Shown piece after piece: positions 1,785 through 8,125 of a DNA stretch of 64,000 nucleotides. Source of the stretch: Hyalangium sp. GTDB lineage: Bacteria; Myxococcota; Myxococcia; Myxococcales; Myxococcaceae. Location of the stretch: assembly GCF_045802625.1 (NCBI RefSeq), contig NZ_JBJMQP010000096.1, positions 37,810 to 101,809 of the forward strand. Reading direction: 5' to 3'. The translations under genes were made by a program, and so were the position numbers. Under the pieces are notes generated by a model. That model was not told the DNA's origin. It was given only the letters and a program-made list of their open reading frames with translations, and searched no databases. Within the stretch, counting starts at the first letter, position 1. Each line of letters opens with the position of its first letter.

Positions 1785-3095
1785 ATGAACGATCCACGCA
1801 AGCTGTTCCTCGCCCCCATGCTGCTCTGTGCTGCCGCGCTGCTCATGGCGCGGCCGGCCTGGGCGGATGCATCCTCTTCGCCCGAGTCCTCCCCGCAGCC
1901 CGCATCCGCTCCCAAGGCCCAGGCCCCGGGTGGTGCCTCCGCCGTCCAGGGCCGCGACGCTCAGGCCGCCTTGAAGTTGGCCATGAGCCTTCAAGCGGAT
2001 CTGCGCATTCCCAAGCCCTTCTCGGGATTGACGAGCACGTTCCTGATCCGCCGCGCCCGGCTCGGGCTCACCGGAACGCTGGCCCCGTTCGCCGAAACGC
2101 GGCTCATCGCTGACTTCGGCCAGACCAACACGCCGCTCTTCCAGGACGCGTGGATCGATCTGCGCGCCGCCTCCTGGCTCCGGCTCCGGGCCGGGCGGCT
2201 CAAGGTGCCCTTTGGCTACGAGTGGCTCGAGACATCCTCCAGCTACCTGGACTTCGTCGAGCAGTCGCTCGTGTACACACTGCTGCTGCCCCGGTACGAC
2301 CAGGGGTTGGCCCTCCACGGAGCGCTCGGGGGCCGGTCCGTGGAGTATTGGCTGGGCGTCTTCAACGAGGCCAGCAGTAAGATCCAGGACGAAGACCGCG
2401 GCAAGATGGTGGCCGGCCGCTTCTCGCTGTCTCCGGTGGAGGGGATCTCGGTCGCGGTGAGCGGCACCCATGGGCTCGGTTACAACCTGCCCGAGGATGT
2501 CCGGCGGAAGCTGCCCACCGGCTATGGCTTCCTGACGGATCCCAAGTACACGATCAAGTACGCGGATGGCACCTCGGGCCTGCTGGTCGTCCCGCCGCGC
2601 TGGCGCCTGGGCGCCGATGCTACCTCCTACCTGGGGCCCACCTCGCTGAAGGTGGAGTATGCGCGGTTCTACTCCCCCACGCAGGAGGGCTGGCTTCGGG
2701 GCGCGGACATTGGCCGGGAGGACAAGCGCGTCCACCTGCCAGGGCTCCGCTCCCAGGCCATATACGCCTCGGGGACGGTGGTGTTGACCGGCGAGAAGCG
2801 GACGTCCAAGGGCGTGGAGCCCGAGCGGCCCTTCGATCCCCTGGCGGATCATTTCGGGCCGGGCGCCTGGGAGCTCGGGCTGCGGTATGGGATTGCCCAA
2901 CTTCGGTTCGAAGGGCTGTCCGTCAATGCGGAGCAGGACGCGTCGGCGGAGCAGCGGATCCACGAGCTGACGGCCGGCCTCAACTGGTACCTCAATCCCT
3001 CTACGCGGTGGATGTTCAACTTCAGCCGCTACTCCTTCTGCGACAGCCAGCCGTCCTTCCACGAGTTCCTGATGCGGATTCAGTGGACCTTCTGA
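1785..3095 (+). CDS. Outer-membrane porin, phosphate-selective porin O/P (OprO/OprP)-like beta-barrel
   Basis: N-terminal signal peptide MNDPRKLFLAPMLLCAAALLMARPAWA. Beta-strand-rich amphipathic sequence with a C-terminal aromatic end ...RIQWTF, typical of OM barrels. Lies 17 bp upstream of the next gene, so probably the same operon. Confidence 0.6.
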   Translation: MNDPRKLFLAPMLLCAAALLMARPAWADASSSPESSPQPASAPKAQAPGGASAVQGRDAQAALKLAMSLQADLRIPKPFSGLTSTFLIRRARLGLTGTLAPFAETRLIADFGQTNTPLFQDAWIDLRAASWLRLRAGRLKVPFGYEWLETSSSYLDFVEQSLVYTLLLPRYDQGLALHGALGGRSVEYWLGVFNEASSKIQDEDRGKMVAGRFSLSPVEGISVAVSGTHGLGYNLPEDVRRKLPTGYGFLTDPKYTIKYADGTSGLLVVPPRWRLGADATSYLGPTSLKVEYARFYSPTQEGWLRGADIGREDKRVHLPGLRSQAIYASGTVVLTGEKRTSKGVEPERPFDPLADHFGPGAWELGLRYGIAQLRFEGLSVNAEQDASAEQRIHELTAGLNWYLNPSTRWMFNFSRYSFCDSQPSFHEFLMRIQWTF

Positions 3096-3112
3096 GGTCG
3101 GAGGACCTACGG

Positions 3113-5988: not shown

Positions 5989-7082
5989 CCCCGTACCCTG
6001 CTCGAAACCTGTTGAAGCTGACGGAGGCTCAGCGCGAGCGCCTCGACGTCCTGTTCCTGGCGCAGTACGCGCCGGAGCCTGGATCGCCCGTGCCCGAGAT
6101 GCACCCGGTGCATGGAGTGCTCCCGCGCTACAACCATGAGCTCTTCCACACCCTGGCCGGGCTGGGGCTGCGGTGTACGCCCTGCCGCGATGTGGAGGAG
6201 TTCGTCCGGAGCGCGAGCCGCCACAACTACGTGTTCACCCTGCTGAACCGCGCGCCGTTTCGGAACTCGGAGATCTTCATCTCGGCCGCCTGTGAGTGGC
6301 TGGGAGTGCCGTACCTCGGGGCCCCGCCCAACGTTCGCGCGCTCGCGGAGGACAAGCACCTCACCAAGCTCATGGCGCGGTCGCTGGGCATCCCGACGGC
6401 GCCGTGGATCACCTGCCTGGCCGAGGGGCCGCTGCCAGCCACGCCCAGCTTCCCAGGGCCTTGGTTCGTCAAGCAGCGGTTCGGTGCCGCGTCCGTGGAC
6501 ATCTCACCAGACTGCATCCAGGAGGAGGAGGCTGGGCTCCACGCGCGCCTGCGGACCTTCCAGGAGGAGGGCAAGGCGTGCATGGTCGAGACCTTCATTC
6601 CGGGAGTGGATCTCACGGTGTGCGTGCTCGGGGGACAGGAGCCGATCCTCCTGGGCGTGGCGGAGGAGATCTCCGCTCTGCCCGAGGGGATCGTCACCCA
6701 CCGGCAGAAGCGCTTGCTGGAGGGTGGGCGCGAGCGCCTGCTGTTGCCGCCGGGGCCGGTCACCGATCAGGTCCAGGACTACACCCGGAGGCTGTGCGCC
6801 GCGGTGAAGGAGTTCGACTACCTGCGCGTCGACTTCCGCCGGCACCGGGACACCGGAGAGATCTTCCTGCTGGAGTTCAACATCGGCTGCAACCTGGGCA
6901 GCCATGCCGCGGTGATGTTCACCGCGCGCCAGGCCGGCTTCCAGCAGGCGGAGGTGGTGGAGCACATCGTGCGTCACAGCCTGGACCGGCAGCTCCGGTC
7001 GTGGACCTCCATGGCGGGAGGGAGCACCCAGCAGCCCCAGCCTCCGCATGCCCAGGAGCAGTGGGAAGGGGGGGCGCCATGA
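5985..7082 (+). CDS. ATP-grasp enzyme, D-alanine-D-alanine ligase / RimK-like
   Basis: ATG overlaps the upstream TGA (ATGA). Ddl-like motifs are present: EDKHLTKLMARSLGIPTAPW, WFVKQRFGAASVDI, MVETFIPGVDLTVCVLGG and DFRRHRDTGEIFLLEFNIGCNLG. Confidence 0.7.
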   Translation: MTPYPARNLLKLTEAQRERLDVLFLAQYAPEPGSPVPEMHPVHGVLPRYNHELFHTLAGLGLRCTPCRDVEEFVRSASRHNYVFTLLNRAPFRNSEIFISAACEWLGVPYLGAPPNVRALAEDKHLTKLMARSLGIPTAPWITCLAEGPLPATPSFPGPWFVKQRFGAASVDISPDCIQEEEAGLHARLRTFQEEGKACMVETFIPGVDLTVCVLGGQEPILLGVAEEISALPEGIVTHRQKRLLEGGRERLLLPPGPVTDQVQDYTRRLCAAVKEFDYLRVDFRRHRDTGEIFLLEFNIGCNLGSHAAVMFTARQAGFQQAEVVEHIVRHSLDRQLRSWTSMAGGSTQQPQPPHAQEQWEGGAP

Positions 7083-8125
7083 AGCGCTCCAGGCTCTCCA
7101 CCGAAGGGGGCCACGGTGTGCGGCATCAGCGTGGGAGGGCCTGGCCGGCAGTCCTGGCGCTGGGGGCGGCCGTCCTCCTGGGCGGTGCTCCCGCCGTCGC
7201 GGCGCCGCCGTACCGCGTCTTCATGGTGTTGCACCGGGCCGGCGCGGAGGCCGATCAGGGGTTCAAGGACTACCTGCTCAGCTCTGGCCTGGAGGTGGAG
7301 TTCACCGTCCGGAACATCGAGGGAGACGACAAACGGCTGCCGGCGATCGTGCAGGAGATCCGCGCCCAGCGCCCGGATCTCATCTATGCCCAGAGCTCGA
7401 TTGTGACCCAGGGCATCGTCGGCCAGCTGGGGGCGGTGGATCCCACCCGGCACATCACGGACATCCCCGTGGTCTTCGCCCTGGTCTCCGATCCGATCGG
7501 CACGGGACTGACGACGGCACTGGAGAGCTCCGGCCGTAACCTGACAGGCGCCGTCCACGTGGCCTCCCTGCCGGTTCAGCTCAAGGCCATGCAGTCCTTC
7601 ATGCCGTTGAAACGGTTGGGGCTCGCCTACAACCCGTCTGAGCAGCCGCAGCGAATCATGTATGAACGTCTCTCGGCGCTCGCCACGCAGGCCGGCATCG
7701 AGCTGGTGGCGGTCGATCCGCTCGGCCCGGATGGGAAACCGGATCCGGAGCGGCTCCCCGCCATGATGGAGGAGCTGGCGGCCCGGAAGCCGGATCTGGT
7801 GTACCTGCCCCCGGTGAACTTCTTCGCGCCGCACAGCAAGCTGTTGATGGACGAGGCGCTCCGGCGCGGCCTGCCGACCTTCTGCGCCATCGAGGTCCAA
7901 CTGGAGGCTGGCGGATTGATGGGGCTGGTGGCGCCCTTCTACAACGTAGGCAGCCTCGCGGGTTACAAGGCCGTGCAGATCCTTCGGGATCGCAGGCCGC
8001 CCGCGGAGATCCCCATCGAAACCCTGTCGCGCTTCTCCTTCGAGGTGAACATGCCGACTGCTCACGCGCTTGGCATATACCCGCCCATGCACATCCTGAG
8101 ATACGCGCGCATGCGCGAGCGGTAG
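7079..8125 (+). CDS. Periplasmic binding protein of the ABC_sub_bind (PF04392/DUF534-like) family
   Basis: ATGA overlap with the upstream gene. Signal peptide MKRSRLS...AVLLGGAPAVAAPP. Family-like blocks RPDLIYAQSSIVTQGI, IPVVFALVSDPIGTGL and RNLTGAVHVASL. No permease or ATPase gene follows. Confidence 0.6.
   Translation: MKRSRLSTEGGHGVRHQRGRAWPAVLALGAAVLLGGAPAVAAPPYRVFMVLHRAGAEADQGFKDYLLSSGLEVEFTVRNIEGDDKRLPAIVQEIRAQRPDLIYAQSSIVTQGIVGQLGAVDPTRHITDIPVVFALVSDPIGTGLTTALESSGRNLTGAVHVASLPVQLKAMQSFMPLKRLGLAYNPSEQPQRIMYERLSALATQAGIELVAVDPLGPDGKPDPERLPAMMEELAARKPDLVYLPPVNFFAPHSKLLMDEALRRGLPTFCAIEVQLEAGGLMGLVAPFYNVGSLAGYKAVQILRDRRPPAEIPIETLSRFSFEVNMPTAHALGIYPPMHILRYARMRER

Follow-up and report, generated by a model that had tools for sequence, protein, structure and literature searches.

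We analyzed a stretch of 64,000 nucleotides (64 kb, the window in what follows; G+C content of ca. 69%) from contig NZ_JBJMQP010000096.1 of the myxobacterium Hyalangium sp., in which a five-gene operon on the forward strand encodes an outer-membrane porin (gene 1), a small membrane-bound sensor (gene 2), a paralogous sensor fused to a permease of the major facilitator superfamily (MFS; gene 3), an ATP-grasp ligase (gene 4) and a periplasmic binding protein of family PF04392 (gene 5). Its conserved unit is a trio, made up of the small sensor paralog, the sensor-MFS fusion and the PF04392 protein, to which the ligase and the porin are accessory.

Gene content and layout of the operon

The five co-directional open reading frames (ORFs) lie at positions 1785-3095, 3113-3892, 3889-5988, 5985-7082 and 7079-8125. 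Genes 1 and 2 are separated by a 17-bp gap (between 3095 and 3113), and the other three junctions are 4-bp stop-start overlaps (GTGA at 3889-3892, ATGA at 5985-5988 and ATGA at 7079-7082), exactly as the initial annotation, made from the DNA letters, had described them. The claimed frames have G+C contents of 0.87 to 0.91 at the third codon position, versus ca. 0.46 to 0.50 at codon position 2, and the NCBI gene calls for the same metagenome-assembled genome (MAG) give products of the same lengths as ours (P0001, 699 amino acids [aa] for gene 3; P0030, 259 aa for gene 2; P0040, 365 aa for gene 4); the gene 3 product is 100% identical to an "MFS transporter" of that MAG. The five-gene operon is confirmed and, since the arrangement recurs in about 80 loci from several phyla, it is far beyond what chance would give.

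Pfam upheld the four domain assignments that had been made from the letters (Porin_O_P, MFS_1, Dala_Dala_lig_C and PF04392); of the other domains that had been named for a check, Cache was recovered only weakly and HAMP stayed below the reporting threshold on gene 3. As for topology, gene 2 has two transmembrane (TM) segments, gene 3 has two followed by the MFS block, gene 4 has no TM segment, and the N-termini of genes 1 and 5 are signal-peptide-like. Searches of the five proteins with Pfam and NCBIfam found no HisKA/HATPase_c, GGDEF/EAL or MCPsignal output domain in any of them, and the operon has neither ABC genes (permease or ATPase) nor a gene for a kinase or GGDEF protein, in agreement with the earlier statement that classical output domains and ABC parts are absent. 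A two-component system was rejected because there is no kinase.

A pair of diverged Cache sensors

Gene 2 (3113..3892, forward strand) encodes a protein of 259 aa in which a single Cache/PDC domain is placed between two TM segments (aa 7-25 and 179-197) and is followed by a degenerate helix-loop-helix; it had been described as a two-TM protein without output, and none was found. Its Pfam match to dCache_1 is weak and sub-threshold. The AlphaFold2 (AF2) model (mean predicted local distance difference test score, pLDDT, 78) retrieved with Foldseek the sCache domains of WalK/YycG, CitA, KinD and DctB, with E values from 1e-7 to 1e-4. The N-terminal part of gene 3 (aa 1-199; 3889..4485, forward strand) is built in the same way, with TM1 at aa 14-32, a predicted periplasmic sCache/PDC domain at 79-163 and TM2 at 178-196, and again its Pfam matches, to sCache_3_2 and dCache_1, are weak and sub-threshold. 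Both AF2 models (pLDDT 78 and 81), computed from shallow alignments, share one layout, namely, a TM1 that runs on as a long helix, an alpha/beta PDC/sCache fold with the element order helix, two strands, helix, three strands, and a long TM2 helix. A long N-terminal helix and a PDC fold between two TM helices, the hallmarks of a single Cache/PDC domain, are thus present in the models of genes 2 and 3 alike.

The paralogy of the two sensors had been proposed from pairs of short peptides, which are indeed present in both proteins. Compared directly by BLASTP, gene 2 and the first 304 residues of gene 3 show no significant similarity (E value of 0.42), and the relationship emerges at the family level: two alignments defined by architecture, one with 77 small proteins and the other with 75 N-termini of fusions, were matched by hhalign with a probability of 99% and an E value of 2.2e-18 over 210 columns with 15% identity. 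The two families keep different residues, G60, W117, W129, G152 and Y158 in the small paralog and P46, P72, D177, E191 and P204 in the fusion N-terminus, a pattern that fits an obligate heterodimer. E191 (codon 4459-4461), inside TM2, is conserved in 100% of 63 nonredundant sequences, and D177 (codon 4417-4419), at the start of TM2, is a second family-conserved acidic residue of this helix. E191 would be a buried Glu in a sensor TM helix beside a putatively proton-coupled carrier.

With the sensor profile nothing significant was found among PDB sequences, and a word-indexed protein search with the small-protein alignment gave 10 matches only. Against 1.84 billion representative proteins (clusters at 50% identity), the sensor profile had 337 matches at E values of ≤1e-30, and the top 150 of these were nearly all fusions of 650 to 760 aa or tandem proteins of 850 to 1,005 aa with two matched stretches. 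Judged from these top matches, the sensor module, in this form, is essentially dedicated to this transporter family, which amounts to at least about 300 clusters at 50% identity from several phyla.

Probable HAMP segment and permease of gene 3

The fusion of a sensor to an MFS permease, already noted in the initial annotation, is real, and what had been overlooked is a probable HAMP domain between the two. It occupies, together with a helical linker to the permease, aa ca. 200 to 296 (4486..4776, forward strand). The consensus of the fusion family after TM2, "RPL...GDF...DExGR...N..V..LN," is a canonical HAMP signature, and gene 3 itself has P204, G218-D-F, D230-E-x-x-R and N247; within the family, P204 is conserved in 95% and G218 in 89% of the sequences. 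Pfam HAMP (PF00672) matches 3 of 10 family members (best E value of 4.3e-8), and precomputed annotation also reports it for P0020 and for the gene of locus L086; gene 3 has no reported Pfam match, its score being below the reporting threshold. At the equivalent position, gene 2 has only the degenerate helix-loop-helix. HAMP domains act as dimeric four-helix bundles (PMC3585426), so a single permease chain would need a partner.

The remainder of gene 3 (aa 297-699; 4777..5988, forward strand) is a DHA1-like permease with 12 TM segments. Its match to MFS_1 (PF07690; E value of 1.1e-33, 117 bits versus a cutoff of 33.4) places it in the superfamily, and AF2 predicts twelve helices at aa 297-687, in two sets of six around a central loop (aa 476-501), with a pLDDT of 81; the earlier claim of a 12-TM permease fused to a sensor is borne out by both. 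The nearest solved folds are VMAT1/2, VAChT, NorA and MdfA (E values from 1e-11 to 1e-9, TM-score of about 0.8). Among the NCBIfam models, the DHA-type half-model TIGR00880 matches best (E value of 3e-18); next come models of various efflux pumps and of some importers, none of which gets near its cutoff. The permease family conserves motif-A-like loops, an invariant R396 in a motif-B-like TM4, an acidic residue (E/D) in TM1, R639, E642 and R643 in TM11, and the sequence SVCGTAIGGILAD in TM5. Motif C of the DHA1 antiporters is G-x-x-x-G-P-x-x-G-G, also in TM5, and SVCGTAIGGILAD seems to resemble it, with Thr replacing Pro. With these motifs and the predicted fold, the permease looks intact, as expected for an active carrier, and its features lean toward H+-antiport efflux, without settling the direction.

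Binding protein and porin

Gene 5 (7079..8125, forward strand; 348 aa) encodes a periplasmic protein with a signal peptide (hydrophobic N-terminal segment at aa 24-42) that belongs to the ABC_sub_bind family (PF04392; E value of 5.3e-28, 98.5 bits versus a cutoff of 25.9). Its relatives in the PDB are 3lft, 3lkv and 6hni (E values from 1e-18 to 6e-16). It shares fold and family with the binding proteins of TrpXYZ-type ABC importers, but it is not TrpX, as it reaches 100 bits with the NCBIfam equivalog model against a cutoff of 390. Genes for an ABC permease or ATPase were found neither in the operon nor beside the PF04392 genes of the annotated related loci, and with this and the low TrpX score an ABC importer of the TrpXYZ type was rejected. 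The protein had been called an orphan, which holds with regard to ABC partners only, since it has a constant partner in the sensor-MFS protein (see below).

Gene 1 (1785..3095, forward strand; 436 aa, with a signal peptide) is an outer-membrane porin of the OprO/OprP family (Porin_O_P; E value of 7.8e-24, 85 bits versus a cutoff of 20.9), distantly related to the solved OprP (2o4v; E value of 3e-6) and OprO, so that an OprO/P-like porin leads the operon, as had been stated. Porins of this type are anion selective, a property that needs a ladder of Arg and Lys residues. A porin was found beside the module in Myxococcota loci only.

A trio conserved across phyla

With an alignment built from 16 homologs of the fusion, we scanned a single genome of each species and obtained 80 nonredundant loci with 83 sensor-MFS genes; ORFs were called in all of them and searched with profiles of each window protein. 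The hosts are Alpha-, Beta- and Gammaproteobacteria, Spirochaetia, Planctomycetota, Fibrobacterota, Desulfobacterota and Myxococcota. The small paralog lies directly upstream on the same strand, or is fused in frame, in 79 of the 83 cases, and a contig end truncates two of the remaining four. Between the small and the fusion gene, a 4-bp stop-start overlap is possible in 43 of 70 cases and a 1-bp overlap in 5 more. A PF04392 gene is found within 3 kb of the sensor-MFS gene in 77 of 83 cases (within 500 bp in 70), whereas an ATP-grasp gene (within 3 kb) and a porin gene accompany only seven each, the latter all in myxobacterial loci. Cystobacter fuscus and three species of Corallococcus have all five genes in the order of the window, which agrees with the predicted synteny, but the five genes that had been regarded as one functional unit are such a unit only as an operon of these bacteria; across phyla the unit shrinks to the trio.

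In nine genes the small protein is fused in frame ahead of the sensor-MFS protein (Neptunomonas qingdaonensis L027, L066, L067, L079, L080 and L083, and the second myxobacterial copy described below). Two hidden Markov models (HMMs), one made from the small proteins and the other from the N-termini of fusions, separate the two modules cleanly: the first module scores 108 to 184 bits with the small-protein HMM versus 17 to 37 with the fusion HMM, and the second 137 to 242 bits with the fusion HMM versus 13 to 21 with the small-protein HMM. Such fusions are Rosetta-stone evidence for a joint function of genes 2 and 3. One could still regard the operon as a row of mere neighbors, i.e., a conventional MFS efflux pump, an isolated ABC binding protein, another cell wall Ddl and a phosphate porin, and the annotation of the single proteins is indeed generic ("MFS transporter," "hypothetical protein" or "D-alanine-D-alanine ligase"). 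However, the stop-start overlaps, the conservation of the trio across phyla, the in-frame fusions, the presence of the ligase family inside the module in distant lineages and the scores with the NCBIfam Ddl and TrpX models, far below their cutoffs, make this hardly credible, and a chance neighborhood was rejected as contradicted by synteny and the fusions.

The ATP-grasp ligase

Gene 4 (5985..7082, forward strand; 365 aa) encodes a predicted cytoplasmic Ddl/VanA-like ATP-grasp ligase of an unnamed family. The Ddl/RimK-like ligase of the initial annotation was recovered through its match to Dala_Dala_lig_C (E value of 9.6e-9, 35.5 bits versus a cutoff of 24); only this C-terminal ATP-grasp domain was detected, with no match to Dala_Dala_lig_N. 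VanA and Ddl are its relatives in the PDB (E values from 1e-13 to 1e-11; the alignment with VanA 3se7 covers aa 99-333), and the Mg/ATP motif "RVDF...LLEFN" is retained, as in a member of the ATP-grasp superfamily. The best NCBIfam Ddl model gives 70.7 bits against a cutoff of 243, by which gene 4 is not a genuine D-alanine--D-alanine ligase. Substrate residues of Ddl are Y216, S281 and L282 (E. coli DdlB numbering); compared by eye with the DdlB sequence, gene 4 presumably has A-A at the equivalents of S281/L282 and K-R instead of K-Y in the omega-loop. A housekeeping Ddl was rejected, given scores far below the model cutoffs and a protein family that tracks the module.

This family comprises at least 359 proteins at E values of ≤1e-8, all of them unnamed or generically named. 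Three homologs with 41 to 53% identity, taken from long contigs, are all inside the same module: in L084 the order is small gene, MFS, ligase, PF04392, as in Hyalangium; in L085 PF04392 and ligase are beside a 789-aa MFS protein and a second ligase; and in L086 the small and MFS genes are divergent from PF04392 and ligase. In Zavarzinia the order is small gene, MFS, ligase, and in two gammaproteobacterial MAGs it is ligase, small gene, MFS. From this synteny gene 4 appears to represent a family dedicated to the module, and, judging by its distribution, the ligase is a dedicated accessory of the subfamily nearest to the Hyalangium genes, outside the universal core.

Some loci depart from the single ligase. 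Two paralogous ATP-grasp ligases flank the module in L014 (4139-10079) and L085 (3512-9035), one of them beside PF04392 and the other beside the small gene or the MFS gene, which may point to two substrates or to ligation in two steps. In Azospirillum sp. SYSU D00513 (L002, 13239-15256) the trio is followed by Formyl_trans_N and TPR proteins with overlapping stops and starts, which replace the ATP-grasp ligase. In the Hyalangium window there is also a second Ddl-like ATP-grasp gene, beside a gene for a Peptidase_Mx putative zinc metallopeptidase (18959-20020 and 20102-21166, both on the reverse strand). It matches Dala_Dala_lig_C with an E value of 2e-29 and the HMM of the gene 4 family with an E value of 4e-48, and it has no match to Dala_Dala_lig_N either.

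SpoIIE neighbors and possible degenerate carriers

Outside the myxobacteria, the trio is often accompanied by a phosphatase gene. Membrane proteins with dCache, HAMP and SpoIIE (PP2C) domains, sometimes with a C-terminal HATPase_c_2 domain (RsbW-like), as in partner switching of the RsbU/RsbW type, are encoded within 5 kb of 32 of the 83 fusion genes, usually directly after PF04392. SpoIIE follows the trio directly in L020 (10983-13505), L026, L028, L029, L038, L058, L068, L074, L075, L076 and L043 (10079-12172). Cultured isolates of Thalassospira, Roseospira and Aquibaculum are among the organisms that have both the trio and SpoIIE. There are in addition paralogous operons with the composition PF04392, small gene, "large" gene and SpoIIE (L019, 11026-15945; L024, 10999-13810; L030; L071, 2260-4960; L001, 14372-18540, reverse strand). 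The "large" protein has the same sensor and a polytopic C-terminus without Pfam match, which hhalign relates to TM3-6 of the MFS part with a probability of 94% and an E value of 1.4e-7, a score that low-complexity TM sequence could inflate. This remote similarity suggests a degenerate carrier, and the "large" proteins may be carriers that have turned into receptors.

With such neighbors and a degenerate permease in related operons, the module may signal instead of, or besides, transporting. In a pure signaling transceptor, the second of the two readings in the initial annotation, the permease would serve neither nutrition nor export but report the state of the ligand to a partner, e.g., an RsbU-type SpoIIE phosphatase or partner-switching proteins; sCache and HAMP are a signaling front end, and there are general precedents for transporter-based sensing in UhpC and DctA-DcuS. 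Nevertheless, no SpoIIE, kinase, cyclase or STAS gene was found in the 64-kb window, nor in the myxobacterial loci, the MFS part strongly conserves transporter motifs and charged intramembrane residues, and a dedicated ligase and a porin fit a transported small molecule better, all of which makes pure signaling quite improbable.

A second, divergent copy and other neighboring genes

The operon is not alone in the window. The reverse strand of 2..1636 encodes a protein with two sensors in tandem ahead of an MFS permease, which the window start truncates after 545 residues. A gene 2-type module (aa ca. 6 to 212), a module of the type of the gene 3 N-terminus (aa ca. 204 to 344) and an MFS part (from aa ca. 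395) follow each other in it. MFS_1 matches aa 395-543 with an E value of 1.6e-13, and both sensor HMMs match twice. Orthologs of this copy are genes of 773 to 894 aa, divergent from the porin gene in Cystobacter and Corallococcus and each followed by its own PF04392 gene; by analogy, the Hyalangium copy probably has a PF04392 partner as well. The initial annotation took 1785-8125 as the whole finding, which is correct for the operon but leaves out the divergent copy, evident from translation, MFS_1 and the sensor HMMs. With this copy the locus is, by homology, the seat of two paralogous systems around one shared intergenic region, and those coordinates cover only one of them.

The divergent intergenic region (1637..1784) has 148 bp and, from its position, would hold the promoters of both systems. 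No sigma-70-like site was found in 1637-1784, and promoter and terminator scans remained at chance level. Rfam riboswitch and leader models had no match in the window region or in seven related loci, and RNA thus gives no hint of what the ligand is. Downstream, 157 bp after gene 5, there is an Indigoidine_A/PsuG-like gene of the pseudouridine-5′-phosphate glycosidase family (8283-9197, forward strand; E value of 1.6e-111), unrelated to the operon and not seen beside the module in other loci. Two genes downstream of the operon (9224-16141, forward strand) is the gene for a 2,305-aa protein with TPR repeats and a C-terminal CHAT domain. In Cystobacter fuscus (L003, 1-4284, reverse strand) a giant CHAT-nSTAND-WD40 protein is encoded directly after the PF04392 gene of the divergent copy; a CHAT protein may be a recurrent neighbor or a coincidence. 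Nothing pointed to a mobile or defense element, a possibility that was set aside, and no search was aimed at such elements.

A proposed binding-protein-controlled carrier

What the data show is the order of the genes, the identity of their domains, the paralogy, the fusions in frame, the co-occurrence and the predicted folds. We propose that in this module a binding protein is coupled to a sensor whose output is a transporter. For the Hyalangium locus, we see about even chances that it encodes a gated MFS transporter complex under the control of the binding protein. In such a complex, the gene 2 product and the first third of the gene 3 product would pair as a heterodimeric sCache sensor and in this way supply a dimeric four-helix HAMP. 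The secreted PF04392 protein would bind a small periplasmic ligand and then dock on the sCache pair, for which its co-occurrence with the sensor-MFS genes argues, and HAMP would pass the change through the conserved linker to the 12-TM permease, switching transport on or off. Gated export is slightly favored over uptake, because the permease resembles the DHA1 proton antiporters. In the Hyalangium subfamily, the Ddl-like ligase may make the exported compound, or trap an imported one, as an amide, and in Myxococcota the OprO/P-type porin would carry the compound across the outer membrane.

Several observations weigh against a gated transporter or against export. The SpoIIE phosphatases beside so many fusion genes and the related operons with a degenerate permease have been described above. 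Gene 3 stays below the Pfam thresholds for HAMP and Cache, for which only family members and the predicted fold give support, and its motif C-like TM5 has Thr where the canonical motif has Pro. PF04392 proteins are otherwise receptors of ABC importers, which points to uptake, and the anion selectivity of OprO/P porins is at odds with the cationic cargo to which the DHA1 features point.

A rival reading, the first of the two in the initial annotation, is binding-protein-dependent uptake followed by ligation, in which the substrate would pass from the porin to the PF04392 protein and on to the MFS permease, with the sCache pair as a dock, and be trapped as an amide by the ATP-grasp ligase. A porin and a cytoplasmic ligase are encoded in one operon here, and the importer PuuP with its ligase PuuA is a general precedent. 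With a binding protein, a small membrane subunit, a permease of 12 TM segments and membrane parts that are fused in some cases, the layout mirrors the tripartite TRAP and TTT transporters. The canonical role of PF04392 is the delivery of amino acids to importers, and solved members of the family hold L-Trp, L-Tyr or L-Phe (PMC10443332). Even so, we consider this scheme rather unlikely. The permease is closest to DHA1 efflux antiporters, which weakens uptake as a default, and a conserved HAMP, a signal converter, would be superfluous in a passive docking scaffold. Moreover, about 90% of the family loci lack the ligase and all loci outside the myxobacteria lack the porin, and the sCache domains would presumably keep the binding protein well above the entrance of the permease.

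Comparison with known systems

The proposed gated carrier has parallels in several described systems. LuxP-LuxQ, TorT-TorS and ChvE-VirA each consist of a periplasmic binding protein and a sensor on whose periplasmic PAS/PDC domain it docks. As in these, a type-I binding protein without its own transporter is encoded here beside a PDC/Cache membrane protein, and the signal would cross the membrane via TM and HAMP-type helices. In contrast, the output here is a fused MFS permease and not a histidine kinase, the sensor is a proposed heterodimer of diverged paralogs instead of a homodimer, and the binding protein is of the PF04392 and not of the LuxP/RbsB type. Sensor kinases such as WalK/YycG, CitA and DcuS share the layout of N-terminal TM segment, single Cache/PDC domain, TM segment and (here probable) HAMP and give the gene 2 model its closest structural matches, but the module has a binding-protein partner and no DHp or catalytic domain, and the ligand-pocket residues of CitA/DcuS are not evidently conserved.

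A secondary carrier coupled to a membrane sensor is also found in UhpC-UhpB, DctA-DcuS and LysP-CadC. There, carrier and sensor are separate proteins with a kinase or regulator as output, whereas here the sensor is fused upstream of the carrier and there is no output protein in the locus. A cytoplasmic amide ligase encoded beside a secondary carrier is known from BacD-BacE (synthesis and export of bacilysin) and PuuP-PuuA (uptake and ligation); unlike these, gene 4 represents an unnamed family of Ddl-like proteins, and no other biosynthetic genes are present here. The TRAP (DctPQM) and TTT (TctCBA) transporters (PMC9352664) have in common with the module the division into soluble binding protein, small membrane protein and 12-TM carrier, membrane parts that are sometimes fused, and the lack of an ATPase. 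However, no parts are homologous: PF04392 stands against DctP/TctC, an MFS permease against an elevator of the ion-transporter superfamily, and a 2-TM sCache protein against a 4-TM scaffold, and only this module has a probable HAMP. Pfam finds PF04392 and MFS_1 and no homologs of DctP/Q/M or TctC/B/A, and membership in TRAP or TTT was rejected, the likeness being architectural only.

Implications

In full-text searches that did not reach most subscription journals, we found no published account of PF04392/COG2984 proteins partnered by an MFS carrier, or of proteins in which Cache, HAMP and MFS parts are fused; within that coverage, the original impression that this is not a described system stands. 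The finding is broader than had been thought, as the trio spans phyla, and also narrower, as ligase and porin are accessory. It gives context to a sizeable unnamed family of Ddl-like ligases and to many "orphan" PF04392 proteins now annotated as ABC components. We propose tentatively, with slightly less than even confidence, that the module is a new transporter class, a tripartite MFS system gated by, or dependent on, a PF04392 protein through a heterodimeric sCache-HAMP sensor wired to the permease. Binding proteins are known to feed ABC, TRAP or TTT transporters or to signal to kinases and chemoreceptors, and HAMP domains to drive kinases, cyclases, phosphatases and the signaling domains of chemoreceptors. 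If the proposal is true, this would be the first case of HAMP controlling a transporter instead of an enzyme and, beside TRAP and TTT, the third independently evolved coupling of periplasmic binding proteins to secondary carriers, and the SpoIIE-linked relatives with a degenerate permease would show the conversion of such a system into a pure receptor. If the coupling is real, it would add to the known ways in which secondary transport is regulated or fed and provide a tractable model of how HAMP signals move a nonenzymatic output, and the family would offer a natural series, from an active carrier to a degenerate one beside a PP2C phosphatase, for the evolution of transporters into receptors.

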